Shown: positions 15,094 through 27,907 of the stretch, piece after piece
Position numbering within the stretch: position 1 is the first letter of the stretch
Layout of the letters: each line of letters opens with the position of its first letter
Assembly: GCA_031288835.1 (NCBI GenBank)
Contig: JAITQO010000007.1
Coordinates: 6,417 to 70,416 of the forward strand
DNA from: Rickettsiales bacterium
Lineage (GTDB): Bacteria > Pseudomonadota > Alphaproteobacteria > Rs-D84
Direction: 5' to 3'
DNA length: 64,000 nucleotides
Made by a program: the position numbers and the translations under genes
Notes under the pieces: model-generated
Seen by the model: the letters and a program-made list of their open reading frames with translations, nothing else
Told to the model about the DNA's origin: nothing
The model's database searches: none

Positions 15094-18190
<3,097 letters not shown>

Positions 18191-18224
18191 TACCGGCTCC
18201 ATCACGAACAAAAAGGATAAAATT

Positions 18225-18626
18225 ATGAACAAATTGCCGCCAATTATCGAGAAAGTCGGATTTCCGTTCAACTGGGAGGAAAAAGAAGTATGGGAACTGG
18301 ATATCCCCGTCGAACAAATGGATATAAATGAACTGGTATGGCATTTCGACATTCCGTTCTGGCAAACGGACGGCGGCAGATATGACCTGAAGCCATCGGA
18401 AGTCTTAAACAATCCTGACAAGTATCAACATCACAAAGAAAGAATCGAAAAATCTGACATTTCATATCCGTTGGATATTCTAAACAATCCTAAAACAGGA
18501 CGCTGGACTTTGCTGGACGGACTGCATCGTCTGGCCAGATTATATTTGCTTGGCAAAACCAACGTCAGCGTCAGGAAAGTATCTGTGGAGGATATTAAGA
18601 AAACTCCCAGTTACAAGGAATTATAA
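18225..18626 (+). CDS. ParB/sulfiredoxin-fold (ParB-like nuclease domain) protein
   Basis: ATG at 18225 after AAAAGGA. 133 aa. ...ISYPLDILNNPKTGRWTLLDGLHRLARLYLLG contains the ParB N-domain DGxHR box. Very AT-rich. Confidence 0.5.
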   Translation: MNKLPPIIEKVGFPFNWEEKEVWELDIPVEQMDINELVWHFDIPFWQTDGGRYDLKPSEVLNNPDKYQHHKERIEKSDISYPLDILNNPKTGRWTLLDGLHRLARLYLLGKTNVSVRKVSVEDIKKTPSYKEL

Positions 18627-18646
18627 AACTCTCATGGGAATATAAA

Positions 18647-19309
18647 ATGAAACTGGGCGCAGAGCAATTTTTCGATTTGGAGCGCAGGCTGATTGGCGGC
18701 GGGCACGACGCGGACCTGGATTCGTTCGCCACAATCCGCGAGAGGCTGAAAACCGGAACGCGTTTCGACGCGGACGAGTTCGCGCGGCAGGCGGCGTATG
18801 TCGTCCTTGCCGGCGGATTCTCGCAAAAGACGGCGAAAAAAATCCACGCGGGGATTATGGATGCTCTGCGCGCGGGAGGAACGGCGGACGATTTGCTGAA
18901 ACTTTTCAACAACAAAAATAAAATCAACGCGATAGCGAAGTTATGGGAAAATCGCGCGCGATATCGCGACGGATACTACGAATTGGCGGGCGCGCCGCTG
19001 GATGAGAAGTTGAAATATTTATCGTCGCTGCCCCATATCGGGAAAATCACGGCGAATCACCTGGCCAGAAACCTCGGCGAGAATATCGTCAAATACGATA
19101 TTTGGATTCAACGTCTTGCGGCCGCCGGAACGGAAGACGGGCCGCTGATTGACAACGGCAACTTGCGCCCGGAAGTCAAAAAGCGATGCGACGAGATGTT
19201 TGCGGAACTTGAAAGCGCAACCGGGCTGCCCCGCGGATACATCGACGTGGTGCTGTGGAAATCATGCCAGGTCGGATTGCTGGAACTCGCCGGCGCCCGC
19301 AGCATTTAA
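18647..19309 (+). CDS. Helix-hairpin-helix DNA glycosylase, Ogg2/AGOG-like (putative 8-oxoguanine glycosylase/lyase)
   Basis: 220 aa. LSSLPHIGKITANHLARNLGENIVKYDIWIQRL resembles the HhH-GPD/Ogg2 active-site region (G-x-G-x-K-x-A-x-H-x-L-R-N-x-G ... D). It starts 20 nt after the previous gene. Confidence 0.45.
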   Translation: MKLGAEQFFDLERRLIGGGHDADLDSFATIRERLKTGTRFDADEFARQAAYVVLAGGFSQKTAKKIHAGIMDALRAGGTADDLLKLFNNKNKINAIAKLWENRARYRDGYYELAGAPLDEKLKYLSSLPHIGKITANHLARNLGENIVKYDIWIQRLAAAGTEDGPLIDNGNLRPEVKKRCDEMFAELESATGLPRGYIDVVLWKSCQVGLLELAGARSI

Positions 19310-19320
19310 CGATCGCCGCG

Positions 19321-20109
19321 TCACATATCGTAATTATCGCAAACGGCATACTTGAATCCGCCGGCATCCGTGCTAGGCGCCGGAATCGTCGTGCAGCCGG
19401 GAGCTTCAAAATATCCGGCCGGGCAGGAAGCATTGCCGTAGCCGTCAAACGCGACCGCGATCGTCGTAGAGCTATAGCAGCTTGGACTCTCGAGTTCGTC
19501 GACAAGTTCGGCCACTAACGAGCTATACTCGTAACCTCCCGTAATATTCTCGTTGTTATTGCACCGATAATAATTGTACATCGGATGGGGAGACTGATTA
19601 TCATAGACGCATTTGATTTTTTCGCAAACCATGCAGCCGTTATCGCAAACTACCTGGGACGGAACGTCAACGATGGTTTTGACGGATACTGCGGTGCTGT
19701 ACGCTGTGCATACGACCGGCTGATCGCTCTCCATAGTGAAAGTGCTGTTGAACGCTTTGGGGTCGATGCCATAATTCCTAAGAAAGCCTTGGATGGACAT
19801 CAAATCATTACGGCATCTATTATTCACGCCGCCGCGACTTGCAATATAATAATAACACATAGTCCCGTAATCATCGCAGGTACCATTATCAAAATCATCG
19901 CCATCGCACACATGAATCTGATTCTCATAATCACAAAAGTAAAAACAATATTCGGTATCGTAATCGCCTTGTATCAAGCCGAAATCATCGATAGGCCAGG
20001 AATAGGGAGGGGCGACCCGATGGGCGGGCGCGCACACCTGTTCGGCCACCGCCGCGGCCGGCGGCGTGGAAATGGCAAAAAGCAACATCGCAATAATAAA
20101 TGACCTCAT
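19321..20109 (-). CDS. Secreted cysteine-rich protein (262 aa, 17 Cys), unknown family
   Basis: Sec-type signal peptide MRSFIIAMLLFAISTPPAAAVA. The mature part is rich in C, D, N and Y (CFYFCDYENQIHVCDGDDFDNGTCDDYGTMCYYY...). GGGAGAA lies 5 nt before the ATG. It is the last gene of the pilus-like cluster. Confidence 0.7.
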   Translation of the reverse strand: MRSFIIAMLLFAISTPPAAAVAEQVCAPAHRVAPPYSWPIDDFGLIQGDYDTEYCFYFCDYENQIHVCDGDDFDNGTCDDYGTMCYYYIASRGGVNNRCRNDLMSIQGFLRNYGIDPKAFNSTFTMESDQPVVCTAYSTAVSVKTIVDVPSQVVCDNGCMVCEKIKCVYDNQSPHPMYNYYRCNNNENITGGYEYSSLVAELVDELESPSCYSSTTIAVAFDGYGNASCPAGYFEAPGCTTIPAPSTDAGGFKYAVCDNYDM

Positions 20110-20481
20110 TTGGTTCTCCCTTGCAATATTTGCGCGGCACGGCCGATAAAAACCGGCGCGCGATTTAAAAACCGCCAGATGATGGCGGTCAGGGAGTTAA
20201 GAAAATCACAGCATATCATGATCCCGGCGGTCTTCGGGCGAACCCTGTTTTATAACCGGCGGCTCCCCGACCTTGTCAGGGCGGATGAAAAACGACATTC
20301 TTGCACCGTATTCATCCGAAGGATCAGATGCGGAGCGCCCGCACCGATATGCTGATGGATTTCTTACGTCCATGAAAGCCACATCCCTGTGGATTCATCC
20401 CTGATATTAATCATTTAAACAACCTAAAACAAGTGAAAATTTCAAGCGAATTCCACGTCCACAAGGGGAATCAGCCGCGCT
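20110..20481 (-). promoter_or_regulatory. 372 bp ORF-free structured spacer (candidate leader or attenuator, or an sRNA)
   Basis: No ORF of 60 aa or more on either strand looks coding. On the minus strand there is a promoter-like TTGTTT-N17-TAATAT (about 20432-20404). Several hairpins follow, two of them mutually exclusive, and then an intrinsic terminator. Confidence 0.3.
20166..20189 (-). terminator. Rho-independent terminator-like hairpin about 60 nt upstream of the Cys-rich gene start
   Basis: Minus strand reads ACCGCCA-TCATC-TGGCGGT followed by TTTTTAA (7 bp stem, 5 nt loop, U-run). Confidence 0.5.
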
Positions 20482-21555
20482 TCAAGACAACGCGTTCGTG
20501 ATCTGTTCCTGCATTTCGAACGTTCCTAACACGACCCACGCGATTACGGCCGACACAAGCAATATCCCGACGCTGTTCAAAATCGACGACAAGCTTTCCA
20601 TCCTGCGCACGCTTGATTCCATATAATCGTTTGCTATTTGGGACAGATTTTTTCCAAAATCAGCCATATCCGCGTATACTTCCAGGTCTCCGATAATTTC
20701 GTCGTTCGGAAAATGCCTGCCGGTATTGTTCAACGCCTGGCCGAGATTATACCCGTTTTCAATCAGATGTTCGGCCGGCTCCAAATTGGAGCGAAGGTAT
20801 CTGCCGCCCGATTCGGACAGCATTTTCATGGCTACGGGCAGGCTGGTCCCGCTGGCGGTCATCGCGGCCAGGGACATCAGCCATGATACTGAAACAGAAA
20901 CCTTATACATACTCCACGGAGGCAGATTGTCCAAAAAAACCCGAAGTTTCCCCGAAAGCCTGGGCAGAGACCACCAGACGAAAAGCCCCGCCGACACCGC
21001 GATAACCAGCGCGGTCAGCCAGTAATGCTCCGCGAATTCTGCCAGCATGACCAGACTTCGCGCCGCTCCGCGCCATACGATGTCGCCTCCGGCCGCCTCG
21101 CTGAGCGGCGGGACGAGATAGAGGCCGACCATTATCACAATCACGAATGTCATCGCAAAAAGAAACGCGGGATACGACAACGCGTCGAACAGCGCCTTTT
21201 TTATCCTCCGGATGCCCTGGGACACCGCCGTAAGATTTTCCAAGGCCGAGGACAACTTCGACACGTCGCCGACTGACAGCATAAGCTCCTCGTTCTGCGG
21301 GGCCCACCTCGCCACCGTTTCGCCGAACGATAATCCGCGCTCCAATCCGTCCTGCCATGCGCGCAAGACAATCGCGAACGGCTCGTTCCTTTTTCGGCCG
21401 TCTTTGGATTCAATTCGCCAGCACCGTTCCAGCGCGTCCATTATCGTGAAATTGTTCCGAAGCAGGGACGCGATTTTGCGATACAGGCCCATCCGCTTGT
21501 CGAAATCCCAGCGGAACATCACTCTCGCGTAAAGGGCGTTCAATGACACCGCCAT
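20482..21555 (-). CDS. pilR: Type IVb pilus/T2SS platform protein (GspF/PilC family; R64 PilR-like)
   Basis: 357 aa with three hydrophobic segments and the duplicated cytoplasmic GspF-type domain layout. It sits downstream of the ATPase, as in R64 pilQ-pilR. Confidence 0.8.
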   Translation of the reverse strand: MAVSLNALYARVMFRWDFDKRMGLYRKIASLLRNNFTIMDALERCWRIESKDGRKRNEPFAIVLRAWQDGLERGLSFGETVARWAPQNEELMLSVGDVSKLSSALENLTAVSQGIRRIKKALFDALSYPAFLFAMTFVIVIMVGLYLVPPLSEAAGGDIVWRGAARSLVMLAEFAEHYWLTALVIAVSAGLFVWWSLPRLSGKLRVFLDNLPPWSMYKVSVSVSWLMSLAAMTASGTSLPVAMKMLSESGGRYLRSNLEPAEHLIENGYNLGQALNNTGRHFPNDEIIGDLEVYADMADFGKNLSQIANDYMESSVRRMESLSSILNSVGILLVSAVIAWVVLGTFEMQEQITNALS

Positions 21556-21899
21556 TTTTCGTCCTCTATTTCCAATTCATAGTATTCCGTTTTTCCCGCG
21601 CGCGAATAAACGGCGAACTCTATTTTCTCATCGAGCAGCGACAGTCCGACGTAGGTTCTTATGGTCATCGCAAACGCCGGGTTCGACAGGTATTGCGGCG
21701 CGTGTTTTGCCGCGTATTCGTCCGAGAACATTCCCTGCAGGGGCAGTATGCGCGAATTGCCGTCAATCTCCAGTTCCGCGGCCTCTTCAGCAACAACGCC
21801 CGAAACATCGTGCCCGCCGCATTTCAATACGACTGTTTCGCCACGTCCGCACGCAAAAAGAAACATCGCTAAAAAAATCATTGGCGATTTGCGATTCAT
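21540..21899 (-). CDS. Small lipoprotein, unknown family
   Basis: ATG at 21899, 3 nt after the ATPase stop (the ORF-track TTG is at 21905). Lipobox FLFAC in MNRKSPMIFLAMFLFACG. It overlaps the platform gene start by 16 nt. Confidence 0.55.
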   Translation of the reverse strand: MNRKSPMIFLAMFLFACGRGETVVLKCGGHDVSGVVAEEAAELEIDGNSRILPLQGMFSDEYAAKHAPQYLSNPAFAMTIRTYVGLSLLDEKIEFAVYSRAGKTEYYELEIEDEKWRCH

Positions 21900-21901
21900 A
21901 G

Positions 21902-23506
21902 TCAATAACTCTCCATCTGGTCCAGCAGGCCGACCCAGCGCTCCAGCTCGTCCACGCCGATAATTCCCTTCAGCATCAGTTCAATCGCAGATTCTTTCAA
22001 TGTGCGCCCGCCAAGCTCCTCCAGCCAATACTTCACCGCCTCGCTGGTCTTCCCGTCCAGCGCAAGCGACAGGAATCTGTTGTCCGCGATTATTATTTCC
22101 CCCGCTTTCGTCCGCCCTACGACGCCCTTGTTTCCGCAATTGTCGCAACCCATGCCCCGGATATAGGACTGGCGCAGCCCGATTTCGCCGAATGCCTCCT
22201 GAACGCGCTTGTATGCCGGATTCTCCGGATGGTCTATCAGTCGCTCGCGGCACTTGGGGCAGAGTTTTCTGAATAGGCGCATGGATACAAGCCCGCGCAT
22301 CATCGTCTCGTCCTTCAACTTGAACGCCTCGACGCCCATGTCCAAAAGCCGGGTCAGCGCCGCAAGCGCGCTGTTAGCATGCAGCGTCGTCCAAACATTA
22401 TGACCCGACAATGCCCCCTTCACCGTCAATTGCGCCGCCGCAAGCGTGCGGATTTCGCCGACCATCAGGGCGTCGGGGTCGCTGCGCAGCGCGGACGCCA
22501 GCGCCTCGGTGAACTTTTCCTCGCGCTGCTCCTCGTTGCTCGCGTTTGTCACCGGAATCTGGTGCGCGCCGAAAATCTTCCTCTCCGCAGGGTCCTCGAC
22601 CGTTATCAGGTTGATTTCATAGTTATGTTCCTTCAGCATCAGCGACATATTCTGAAACAGAGTCGTCGACTTTCCGGAACTTGTCGGGCCGGCGACAACG
22701 ACAAGTCCGGTCGGAAACGCGCGCATCCTGAACAACAGCTGCTGCTCATATTCGCCGAACTCCTGCTCGGTCTTTATTCCCTCGCTCGGATTGTCATACA
22801 GAATCCGCATTACGACATACCGCGAGCCGAACGCAATCGGATTGAACTGCATGCGGACGCCGAGGACTCCGGTCGGCAGATACAAGTCCTTCGTCCCGCG
22901 GAGCGGCGTGCGCCCGTCTTTCTGCGCCGACTGGTATTCGTTCTGGGCATAGTTGGAATTGGATATGTCCGCCGAAGCGAACGCGGCGCGGATGAACGAT
23001 TCGCCCCATGACGCGTTGTTTTCGCTAATCAGCTGCATGCTGCCGTCAAAGCGGAAATAAACCGACGTTTGGTCCGCCACCTCTATATGGACGTCCGATA
23101 CCTTCATCGACGCGGCGCGAGATATTATGTCCACGAAATCCTTCTGCATCTGATTGTCGTAATCAAGAATATTGCGACGGCCCTGCCGTTCGGCGTTTCT
23201 ATTGTAAATCGCCGCGACCAGCGCAAGGTCCGAATAAAACGGCTCCTTGTGGGAAATGCCCTCGCGCGCGAGCAGTTCCTTGAACGCCAAAACGCGCCCG
23301 TCATACCGGTGGGTGCGCGACACAATCATGCTGCCGTCCGAAAAGAAGGCCAGAAGGTTCTGAGTTTCGCGCGGCAGCTCCATCGTCCCGCCCGTCGCGG
23401 TGATAAGCCTGTTGTTATTTCCAAACAGATAATCGACGACGGACTTCTGGTCCGCGTTTTCCAATCCGCCGGGAACGCTTTTAAGATTGTCTCTCTCTCC
23501 GGCCAT
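21902..23506 (-). CDS. pilQ: Type IVb pilus/T2SS assembly ATPase (GspE/PilB family; R64 PilQ-like)
   Basis: Walker A VVAGPTSSGKSTTLF, Asp/His boxes (MVGEIR, GHNVWTTLHAN), and a tetracysteine motif CPKC...CDNC. Confidence 0.9.
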   Translation of the reverse strand: MAGERDNLKSVPGGLENADQKSVVDYLFGNNNRLITATGGTMELPRETQNLLAFFSDGSMIVSRTHRYDGRVLAFKELLAREGISHKEPFYSDLALVAAIYNRNAERQGRRNILDYDNQMQKDFVDIISRAASMKVSDVHIEVADQTSVYFRFDGSMQLISENNASWGESFIRAAFASADISNSNYAQNEYQSAQKDGRTPLRGTKDLYLPTGVLGVRMQFNPIAFGSRYVVMRILYDNPSEGIKTEQEFGEYEQQLLFRMRAFPTGLVVVAGPTSSGKSTTLFQNMSLMLKEHNYEINLITVEDPAERKIFGAHQIPVTNASNEEQREEKFTEALASALRSDPDALMVGEIRTLAAAQLTVKGALSGHNVWTTLHANSALAALTRLLDMGVEAFKLKDETMMRGLVSMRLFRKLCPKCRERLIDHPENPAYKRVQEAFGEIGLRQSYIRGMGCDNCGNKGVVGRTKAGEIIIADNRFLSLALDGKTSEAVKYWLEELGGRTLKESAIELMLKGIIGVDELERWVGLLDQMESY

Positions 23507-25667: not shown

Positions 25668-26513
25668 ATGCCGAACAAACGAAACTTTTTCACGGTGGAC
25701 GACGACATAGGGGGAATGATTCGCCGCGCAGCGCCCGACATAGGCATAAGGGCAATCCGCATCGTGCCGACGGGATGGACGAACATAGTGGCCGAAGCCG
25801 AGACCGACTGCGGCGAATATTTCTTCCGTTTTCCGCGCGATGGGTTCTGGGCGGAAATGCTGGAAAAAGATTGCGAGTTTTCTCAATTCGTTCACGGACG
25901 CACCTCGTTTTCGACAAACCTTTTATCGCTGTTCCGTGACAGCGGCCGGATTTTCTCCATGCATAAAAAAATACCGGGCAATGCTTTGTCATGCGTCGCC
26001 GGCTCTTTGTCAGAAAGCGAGGCCAAGGTCATCGCCGACGACATATCGCGCTTCATGATTGAAATCGGCGCAATTCCGGTATCGGAGATTCCGGAAAAAT
26101 GCCGCATGGGTTTGGCCGAGTTCCTGCGCCGGCTCGGCGAACTGCATTTCGAGGACAAAAGCATGAAATATTTCCATACATTCGCAAATCACGAAAAAGA
26201 TATCCGCGTCGTTCACGGGGACTTGAACCCCGGAAACATTATCATACGGAACGGACGCGTAGGAGGGATTATCGACTTTTGCTTCGCCGGCCCGGGGCCA
26301 TACGCCTATTCAGACCTGCCGTGGCTTTGCAACCGCATGCCGCCGGCGTTTCGAAAAACAATGCTGGCGTCTTTCGAGAATATGTCCGGAATGCGCATAA
26401 ACCCGGACACATTTGAGGATTTCTCAAAGGCGTGGAGATTCATAGGGACGGAATACATCCGGTTCATGAGGAAATGCCAGCCGGAGATAGAGATTCCAGG
26501 CGGCGATTTATAA
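25668..26513 (+). CDS. Aminoglycoside/choline-kinase-type phosphotransferase (APH family)
   Basis: From ATG 25668, 281 aa. Catalytic and Mg loops VVHGDLNPGNIIIRNGRVGGIIDFCFAG. It is the only plus-strand gene inside the pilus-like cluster. The upstream part of the ORF-track entry is antisense to the PilO-like gene. Confidence 0.7.
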   Translation: MPNKRNFFTVDDDIGGMIRRAAPDIGIRAIRIVPTGWTNIVAEAETDCGEYFFRFPRDGFWAEMLEKDCEFSQFVHGRTSFSTNLLSLFRDSGRIFSMHKKIPGNALSCVAGSLSESEAKVIADDISRFMIEIGAIPVSEIPEKCRMGLAEFLRRLGELHFEDKSMKYFHTFANHEKDIRVVHGDLNPGNIIIRNGRVGGIIDFCFAGPGPYAYSDLPWLCNRMPPAFRKTMLASFENMSGMRINPDTFEDFSKAWRFIGTEYIRFMRKCQPEIEIPGGDL

Positions 26514-27318
26514 ACCAATCCGTTTTCGCCGCCAGCAAAGCCGCCTCGTCGGCAACAGCGGACGGAGCCATGGCGCGGCACCGGTTAAACGCGGCGAGCA
26601 TCTCGGCGTCCGACATCCGTCCGACAAACGTCGGATTGGCGTCGAACGCATTCCATAGCACACACGGAACAAGCGGGCACACGGTTCCCAGAAACACAAG
26701 GCCGCGGCGCTGCGCGTCATAAAAATAATCCGCGGACTTTTTCGTGACGACGCGCCCCTCGCATTCCGCGCGCTTTTTTATAAACTCGTCGGAAACCGGC
26801 TTTCCAACCGCAAGCACATGATGTTCGCAACGATAGCCGGCGCTAAGAAGAAGCAGCGCAATGAACTCCTCAAACACTGCATCCAACAGCGCGACCTCCA
26901 ACACCATCGGGCAGCCGGAGCGAAGCATTTTCTCCAGCGTCAGAAACATCAGAATCAGCGCGAATTCATTCGTGCTTTCCCTCAGCATCATATCTCCGAA
27001 ACGGGCGCGGATTTCATTATAAAACGGATGATAGCGCGCGAAAAAACCCACGGACACATGCGCTGGATTCAGTCCGGCGGCGCGAAAGCCGGCAAGCGCC
27101 GCGGGCAGAAGCTGGGTTGTTTTCCCGCTTCCTGATTGTCCCGAAAGCCGCACATACTCTCCATCGCCGCGAACATTCGCCGTCACATCGGCGAACGCGC
27201 GGTTTACCAAATCAGAATAATCCGAAACAATCCAATCGCCCGGCATATCCGGACGGCGCCACATGCGCGCGGCAAACCGCAACACCCCGTCCCTTAAATC
27301 ATTGATACGCTCCGACAT
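26464..27318 (-). CDS. P-loop kinase, zeta-toxin/AAA_33-like
   Basis: Walker A LSGQSGSGKTTQLL about 70 aa from the N-terminus. About 285 aa. The first ATG is at 27318; the ORF-track TTG is at 27357. Its 3' end overlaps the convergent APH gene by 50 nt. Confidence 0.45.
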   Translation of the reverse strand: MSERINDLRDGVLRFAARMWRRPDMPGDWIVSDYSDLVNRAFADVTANVRGDGEYVRLSGQSGSGKTTQLLPAALAGFRAAGLNPAHVSVGFFARYHPFYNEIRARFGDMMLRESTNEFALILMFLTLEKMLRSGCPMVLEVALLDAVFEEFIALLLLSAGYRCEHHVLAVGKPVSDEFIKKRAECEGRVVTKKSADYFYDAQRRGLVFLGTVCPLVPCVLWNAFDANPTFVGRMSDAEMLAAFNRCRAMAPSAVADEAALLAAKTDWFINRRLESLSPAGISS

Positions 27319-27360
27319 TCCGGCATAATAATGGAAACATGTCGATTGCGCAATCAAAAA

Positions 27361-27787
27361 TCAGCAATACAGCTTTGCCCTCAGTTTTTCTATTAAAATC
27401 TTTTTAAGCCAATCGGGATACGGAGCGTATGTTTCGACAAATCTTATCGGTTCCGACGCGTCGAACTCCCCGCCTCGATACGCCTTGCCGGCGCCTATTA
27501 TGGTCGCACACCATTTCATTGATATATTTTTCCGGAATCGGGGAGATTGTCTTATCCCTCGGATTATACCAATATTCCCAGTGGTGCTTATTCATATGAA
27601 TATGATGCAGGTAAGACGGCGAGTAGCCCTTGTCTTGTATTTCAAGCTCTATCGGAGACTCTTTTCCCGTGTAATATTTCGCCTGCCGGATTTCCGGCGG
27701 AAGAAGCTTCGACAAGTCGTGAACCAATCCCTGCCAAATCAAGCCATATCCGCACATTTCGCGAAACACATAATATTTATGCTTCAT
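27361..27787 (-). pseudogene. DUF5662-like (HDxSK motif) protein, frameshifted
   Basis: MKHKYYVFREMCGYGLIWQGLVHDLSKL...YINEMVCD, then junk in the same frame. Shifting one nt near 27498-27502 restores IIGAGKAYRGGEFDASEPIRFVETYAPYPDWLKKILIEKLRAKLYC*, ending at 27361. Confidence 0.5.
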
Positions 27788-27907
27788 AACCGTCTTAAAA
27801 AACCTGAAATATTTAAGCACTTACCACAAGAATACCACGGCGTTTTTCATAAATCAACACCGTGTCCGGAATCCCGGCCAACGCCATATTCAATTCCAAA
27901 AAATGGA

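Follow-up and report, generated by a model that had tools for sequence, protein, structure and literature searches.

The window analysed here is a stretch of 64,000 nucleotides from the genome of a Rickettsiales bacterium of the order Rs-D84 (GenBank assembly GCA_031288835.1, contig JAITQO010000007.1, positions 6,417 to 70,416 of the forward strand). On the same strand as a type IVb pilus cluster, and immediately following it, the window contains a gene for a cysteine-rich protein with a predicted Sec-type signal peptide (Table 1). With moderate confidence, this protein is interpreted as a species-specific, N-terminally extended and acidic member of a fast-evolving repertoire of disulfide-rich surface or secreted proteins that takes part in contact with a partner or host cell. 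The gene is real, since its C-terminal part shows homology, with conserved cysteines, to other proteins of the same genus. It is accessory cargo at the end of the pilus operon and not a conserved part of the pilus, because another genome of the genus lacks the whole stretch comprising the gene and its upstream leader.

C-terminal homology and properties of the protein

The C-terminal domain is homologous to a family of secreted proteins of about 125 amino acids (P0003, P0004, P0005, and P0006), which come from the same genus and are annotated as hypothetical only. P0004 is encoded in the genome under study (G000, C7:5715) and P0003 in another genome of the genus (G003, contig C33). Smith-Waterman alignment of the domain scored 102 with P0003 (z = 10.5; shuffles 34.3 ± 6.5) and 88 with P0004 (z = 8.8), while the background of composition-preserving shuffles was 33–34 ± 6 and none of 2000 shuffles reached either score. 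A hidden Markov model (HMM) built from the four family sequences, without this protein, recovered it with E = 4e-5 (domain E = 1.4e-4) over HMM positions 3–121, as the top non-self match among 10,954 six-frame segments of the genome. In alignment A2, which has three sequences (this protein, P0003, and P0004), eight cysteine columns are invariant, and four are still invariant in the alignment of five sequences, in which P0006 is partial.

A profile search of 5.8 billion proteins returned five family members only, adding P0005 and P0006, and all five originate from “Rickettsiales” or termite-gut sources. Identity among the family members is 29–37%, compared with 71–76% for PilR within the genus, and the family is therefore fast-evolving. 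The P0005 gene is located between pyk and ksgA, and the family members elsewhere likewise lie among housekeeping genes. The family has the common framework C-x3-5-C-x2-C-x4-C ... C-N ... C-P-x-G-Y-F-E-x3-C-x-x-P-A ... D-x-x-G-x-F/Y-x-Y-x-x-C and shares with the protein studied here the Sec signal peptide, an odd number of cysteines and the genus of origin. In P0003–P0006, however, the domain starts at the mature N-terminus, whereas here it is preceded by 127 unique residues, and this protein is therefore an N-terminally extended variant. It also lacks about 25–30 residues in the middle of the domain, and its net charge of −22 differs from the −3 to +2 of its relatives.

The domain ends with a module of about 33 residues with the pattern CPxGY-x-E ... 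D-x-K/G-G-x-F/Y-x-Y-x-x-C (here CPAGYFE...GFKYAVC), which also closes at least 12 other cysteine-rich proteins of the genus. An HMM was made from 14 copies of the module, taken from four genomes of the genus and not including this protein; it matched the extreme C-terminus of this protein with E = 2.2e-4 (domain E = 5.7e-4) in the same set of six-frame segments. The match appeared only once same-genus copies had joined the profile; a first profile of seven sequences missed this protein at E ≤ 0.01 and matched, weakly, internal parts of large proteins from other genera. In its C-P-x-G-Y turn, the module is similar to the core C-x-x-C-P-x-G-T-Y of the Ephrin_rec_like / GCC2_GCC3 repeats (PF07699). 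This likeness is a resemblance only; PF07699 does not match the protein at E ≤ 10, and the improved 14-copy HMM does not match the giant cysteine-rich proteins of the genome at the same threshold.

Among 13 module-bearing proteins (from G000, G001, and G003, and P0003–P0005), ten have an odd number of cysteines in the predicted mature form: 9 (the C-terminal domain of this protein), 11, 13, 13, 13, 13, 15, 15, 17, and 21. The odd counts hint that one thiol is free or that a disulfide links two molecules, the trend not being significant because the sequences are related.

At full length the protein stands by itself. A word-indexed search of 5.8 billion proteins found the protein alone, phmmer against 1.84 billion representatives found it together with a repetitive junk translation (P0002), and a six-frame search of its own genome and 40 relatives revealed no full-length match and no paralogue at E ≤ 10. 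Neither the single protein nor the family profile gave a meaningful match to Pfam (also at E ≤ 10), NCBIfam or PDB sequences. The unique N-terminal region, with a cysteine-free stretch rich in proline and aromatic residues at positions 27–54, resembles nothing else encoded in the genome (lowest phmmer E-value 0.31) and none of the proteins related to the C-terminal domain (z ≤ 0.9). The possibility that it is an internal duplicate of the C-terminal half is excluded by z = −0.1. An initial annotation, made from the window alone, had called the protein an orphan, which is correct for its full length and not for residues 150–262, where relatives are detectable. The protein family is undescribed; there is no Pfam or NCBIfam entry for these cysteine-rich families, and the searched literature does not mention cysteine-rich proteins of the Rs-D84 lineage.

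The reading frame starts with ATG, with a GGGAG Shine-Dalgarno site 8 nt upstream, and has a GC content of 49% (51% in the window). Logan provides an independent assembly of the termite-gut source run, in which window positions 17500–22500 are contained in one contig with 0 differences; a read search for polymorphism or expression found the stretch in the source run alone, as contigs. The predicted signal peptide is MRSFIIAMLLFAISTPPAAAVA, and 17 of 17 cysteines (residues 26, 55, 59, 68, 78, 85, 99, 134, 155, 159, 162, 167, 183, 211, 229, 239, and 257) lie beyond the predicted signal-peptidase I cleavage site AVA↓EQ. The first cysteine is at mature position +4, as in the relatives (xxLCK, AIDC, SVDC). 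Its context is AVAEQVC, where E-Q-V precede the cysteine, so that a lipobox of the form [LVI][ASTVI][GAS]C is absent, and the protein has no second hydrophobic segment. It contains 22 Asp, 22 Tyr, and 16 Asn residues. The mature form has a net charge of −22 and a pI of about 4, with an acidic and aromatic stretch at residues 49–88 and dense clusters of Asp, Asn, and Tyr, e.g. CDGDDFDNGTCDDYG.

The Sec signal peptide, the 17 cysteines of the mature part and the acidic/aromatic stretch reported in the initial annotation are thus all present as quoted, and its statement that the protein has neither a transmembrane segment nor a lipobox agrees with our reading. It had also assigned the protein to no known family, consistent with the lack of a Pfam or NCBIfam match; the product is not a housekeeping enzyme. 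Its description as an exported, disulfide-rich protein of extracellular type is supported as a prediction.

The corresponding position in R64-type clusters is occupied by the pilin gene pilS. Identity of the product with such a type IV pilin was rejected, as its N-terminus is a classical Sec signal (AVA↓EQ) with no G-F/M...E class III site.

Genomic locus and leader RNA

The pilus cluster comprises genes for a TcpQ/PilL-like protein, the PilN secretin, a DUF5662 protein, a zeta-toxin, PilO, PilP, the PilQ ATPase, a 121-aa product and PilR, while pilin genes are absent from it. pilN and pilO are separated by the insertion of the zeta-toxin-like kinase gene and the DUF5662 gene (window positions 26464–27820). 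The pilR stop is at position 20482 and the gene starts directly downstream at 20109, both on the minus strand. The other flank, convergent with the gene, is formed by a gene for a 220-aa product, two small genes and gyrB. The longest gyrB open reading frame (window positions 15094–18003) encodes 969 aa; relatives of about 790–800 aa lack its first ~170 codons, and the true start is probably a methionine within this frame.

PilR is present in 149 of the 151 genomes of the order. In a blastn comparison with the same-genus genome G003, homology ends at position 20486, at the 3′ end of pilR, and restarts at 19281; the gene is therefore not a conserved pilus part. Search for flanking repeats or attachment sites around this 1.2-kb indel gave nothing convincing. 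No such gene follows pilR in the same-genus genomes G003, G001, and G002, and at about 60 other pilR loci of the order the slot holds a cysteine-rich secreted gene in three cases, all unrelated to this gene. The initial annotation had proposed to look for orthologues next to other pilus clusters; there are none, and in same-genus genomes the position is empty. Acquisition of cysteine-rich secreted genes at the 3′ end of the pil operon is recurrent.

In a genome of another genus (G008, locus L052, 6528–8513 in pilR-forward orientation), a gene directly after pilR encodes a secreted protein of 661 aa with 33 cysteines, CC pairs, a Lys/Glu-rich composition and a C-terminal hydrophobic segment. 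It was dismissed as a relative of the protein described here, having no sequence similarity to it. Genes of the CWCQ family, described below, are found right after pilR at loci L021 (2975–4012) and L121 (5233–6117), in the same orientation; they were likewise rejected as relatives (z < 0).

Table 1. Features of the cysteine-rich protein gene and its surroundings (window positions).
Feature	Position	Strand	Description
Whole open reading frame	19321–20109	minus	262 aa, 17 Cys; stop codon 19321–19323
Sec-type signal peptide	20044–20109	minus	Residues 1–22, MRS + hydrophobic core + AVA↓EQ; read from the sequence
Unique N-terminal region	19663–20043	minus	Residues 23–149, 8 Cys, Asp/Tyr/Asn-rich, net charge −12
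C-terminal Cys-rich domain	19324–19662	minus	Residues 150–262, 9 Cys; homologous to P0003–P0006
C-terminal module	19339–19437	minus	Residues 225–257, GNASCPAGYFEAPGCTTIPAPSTDAGGFKYAVC, followed by a 5-residue tail
Leader 3′ part	20116–20196	minus	Predicted 8-bp hairpin + U-run (~20165–20190)
sRNA-Xcc1-like leader core	20179–20272	minus	Within the 372-bp spacer before the gene; RF02221 match
1,204-bp stretch, leader + gene	19282–20485		Missing in same-genus G003 (116 bp there)
pilR (T2SSF platform protein)	20482–21555	minus	Last conserved pil gene; PF00482, E = 1e-21

The leader core matches the full RF02221 model (positions 1–87) with 36.7 bits and E = 2.9e-4. Judged from this match, it is a distant relative of sRNA-Xcc1 and not a curated member. 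The genome contains nine Xcc1-like copies, which align well with one another, and five of them are located directly before cysteine-rich or module-bearing genes, including two CWCQ genes; none was found before P0003, P0004, and P0005. Unlike sRNA-Xcc1, which is a free-standing small RNA, the copy found here appears as a 5′ leader with a predicted terminator and an anti-Shine-Dalgarno extension. A CUCCCU segment in its 3′ part is predicted to pair with the Shine-Dalgarno sequence AGGGAG (~20116–20121). A simple terminator scan of the locus gave nothing, and folding gave the hairpin and U-run, which are kept in other leader copies. The minimum-free-energy fold of the leader has a predicted energy of −66.2 kcal/mol, with a z-score of only −1.8.

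Elsewhere in the genome (G000 C11:23897–24203), all that remains behind an Xcc1-like leader is a stretch of 36 codons encoding the C-terminal module (CPARYAQC...), which looks like a decayed cysteine-rich gene with its leader kept. In a related metagenome-assembled genome (MAG; L133, 2922–3038), a palindromic hairpin of about 110 nt is located between two convergent genes and matches several miRNA-precursor models on both strands.

Cysteine-rich secretome and machinery for disulfide formation and export

About 20 proteins with a signal peptide, at least 8 cysteines and at least 4% Cys are encoded by the genome, according to a crude gene call. They account for about 4% of the coded residues and contain about 570 cysteines; examples of their loci are G000 C4:49623–54581, C16:3082–5778, C2:93603–95498, C14:7750–9957, C13:275–3358, and C13:11033–13282. 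A cysteine-rich exported protein is therefore typical of this lineage, contrary to the initial annotation, which had considered it unusual for a small-genome alphaproteobacterium. They include a giant protein of 1652 aa with 136 cysteines, in which CxxCxxGTY repeats were recognised by eye, outside the Pfam scan, and an 898-aa giant (C16:3082–5778) with Ephrin_rec_like and Listeria-Bacteroides repeats identified by Pfam. Proteins of 350–1000 aa without a Pfam match form the “CMDxFC” family.

The “CWCQ...WVF” family has ten copies in this genome (C4:5131–5637, C16:64823–65818, C2:106503–107114, C13:6860–7399, and others). A single-sequence search detected it in 51 of the 151 genomes of the order, where one genome can hold as many as 13 copies and many copies are interrupted by internal stops. 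It looks like a variable multigene surface family. Within the genus, CWCQ proteins have the C-terminal module in common with the protein described here, as well as an N-terminal xx(L/V)C motif in the mature form, and some copies are equipped with the same Xcc1-like leader. The CWCQ...WVF core is, however, absent from this protein, and similarity to the CWCQ family is undetectable outside the last ~35 residues.

The Rs-D84 lineage is reported to lack respiratory chains. The genome under study has a size of 789 kb in 16 contigs and is 82.6% complete, its closest relatives being termite-gut MAGs labelled “Rickettsiales bacterium”; all sampled genomes of the order are between 0.5 and 1.1 Mb. Members of Rs-D84 have been characterised as reduced, fermentative and probably partner-dependent bacteria with many hypothetical membrane proteins (PMC12306168).

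The initial annotation had suggested checking for a DsbA/DsbB system. The genome encodes a membrane-anchored DsbA-type oxidase with a CPYC motif (G000 C3:14612–15484; PF01323, E = 1.5e-16), whereas the 82.6%-complete assembly yielded no match to DsbB (PF02600) or VKOR (PF07884). The presence of DsbA means that disulfide-forming machinery is not lacking altogether. PilN is the only secretin in the genome. The single prepilin peptidase gene (G000 C13:4380–4682) is located on another contig. It was also observed that this gene lies 2.2 kb from a leader-equipped CWCQ gene and adjoins two large cysteine-rich secreted genes.

Proposed role and alternatives

According to the proposed interpretation, the protein would leave the cytoplasm through Sec, be cut after AVA and gain its disulfides in the periplasm from the membrane-anchored DsbA. 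Resistant to proteases, it would then work beyond the cytoplasm, on the surface or after release, and, as one of a variable repertoire, would contact the partner or host cell by adhering to it or binding a ligand. Its own sRNA-Xcc1-like leader, with the terminator hairpin and a segment that may mask the ribosome-binding site, would keep its expression separate from that of the pilus operon. A lineage-specific, cysteine-rich secreted multigene family in a host-associated microbe is of a familiar kind; this protein is new within an undescribed family.

Several points weigh against this interpretation. No characterised homologue was found, and both AlphaFold2 (AF2) models were unusable, with a predicted local distance difference test (pLDDT) score of 37.8 for the single sequence and 44.8 for the C-terminal domain with the five-sequence alignment. 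The acidity of the protein is not common to its relatives, and its activity may therefore differ from theirs. The E-values of the module and the leader are modest (~1e-4), and the leader is below the Rfam gathering score (36.7 vs. 53 bits). With neither DsbB nor VKOR detected, the interpretation has to assume that an anaerobe can form disulfides efficiently. Finally, the protein could stay in the periplasm.

The main alternative is that the protein is an exoprotein of the TcpF/CofJ type, whose N-terminal segment docks on the type IVb minor-pilin tip and which leaves the cell through the PilN secretin; we regard this as unlikely. The gene follows pilR on the same strand just as tcpF follows tcpE and cofJ follows cofI, so that, like TcpF of the Vibrio cholerae TCP and CofJ of enterotoxigenic Escherichia coli (ETEC) CFA/III, it is located after a type IVb platform gene (PMC10120004). 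TcpF and CofJ have Sec signal peptides and no mutual homology, and in each a flexible N-terminal export signal with an aromatic residue precedes a disulfide that fixes the N-terminus (PMC10120004). The protein described here resembles them in its Sec signal peptide, the lack of homology to other families and a disulfide-stabilised body, the latter being predicted in our case (PMC10120004). The Pro/aromatic-rich, cysteine-free residues 27–54 before the cysteine-dense body, PilN as the sole secretin, the prepilin peptidase, and the three other genomes with a cysteine-rich secreted gene right after pilR also agree with such a function.

However, the gene is not conserved in the operon, being absent after pilR in G003, G001, and G002, with only about 3 of some 60 other loci filled, and by unrelated genes. 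It has its own leader and predicted terminator and is therefore not simply the last cistron of the pil operon, while its paralogue-like relatives lie elsewhere, among housekeeping genes. The feature of the TcpF/CofJ class is a segment of about 24 free, cysteine-free residues with a key aromatic; here the cysteine-free segment occupies mature positions 5–32, after Cys +4. The presence of a cysteine at mature position +4, which TcpF and CofJ do not share, suggests that the mature N-terminus is probably tethered and is not a free handle.

A role as a cation binder or buffer in the periplasm or at the surface, where the Asp/Tyr/Cys-dense N-terminal region chelates Ca2+ or metal ions, seems rather improbable. 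It would account for the strong negative charge, the low pI and the dense D/N/Y clusters, and one thiol may be free, given the odd number of cysteines. Nevertheless, no known Ca2+- or metal-binding family matched the protein at E ≤ 10, and the EGF-Ca and thrombospondin type 3 consensus sequences both misfit the acidic stretch when compared by eye. The relatives are not acidic, and there is no transporter or metallochaperone gene nearby.

A more far-reaching and more doubtful proposal is that the type IVb pilus serves as a multi-substrate secretion machine for the whole cysteine-rich secretome, with this gene coding for one cargo. It is put forward because PilR is kept in nearly all genomes of the order (149 of 151), PilN is the sole secretin, the mature N-termini are conserved and the C-terminal module is common. 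If true, it would extend the TcpF/CofJ rule of one pilus and one exoprotein to dozens of fast-evolving substrates, in a bacterium with an obligate dependence on a partner.

We consider it still less probable that the protein is a secreted antagonistic peptide or toxin, similar to a bacteriocin, directed against competitors or the partner cell. Its small size, secretion, inferred disulfide stabilisation, restriction to one species, fast evolution and variable genomic slot would suit a toxin, and the zeta-toxin gene inserted in the pil cluster shows that the locus takes accessory cargo. An adjacent immunity gene, a dedicated exporter and similarity to toxin or bacteriocin families are, however, all missing; its strongly anionic character sets it apart from most membrane-active peptides, and the many copies per genome in the wider family fit surface variation better.

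A non-functional reading frame or the remnant of a decaying pseudogene, as might be suspected from the occurrence of the gene in a single species and from the many copies with internal stops in the wider cysteine-rich families, is most improbable given the intact frame of 262 codons with a Shine-Dalgarno site, signal peptide and native GC content, and the eight cysteine positions conserved with relatives at only ~30–37% identity.

Taken alone, this single protein is of moderate significance. As a member of the proposed disulfide-rich surface or secreted repertoire, it bears on the lifestyle of an order of uncultured, gut-associated fermentative bacteria with genomes of ~0.5–1.1 Mb, which are apparently partner-dependent. 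The gene leads to an undescribed component of this interface, namely multigene, quickly evolving families of disulfide-rich exported proteins, some of which sit behind a common RNA leader, in a bacterium with DsbA and without a known re-oxidant for it. Its presence/absence variation makes it a handle for structural work, for the study of export through the pilus secretin and for strain tracking in termite-gut metagenomes.

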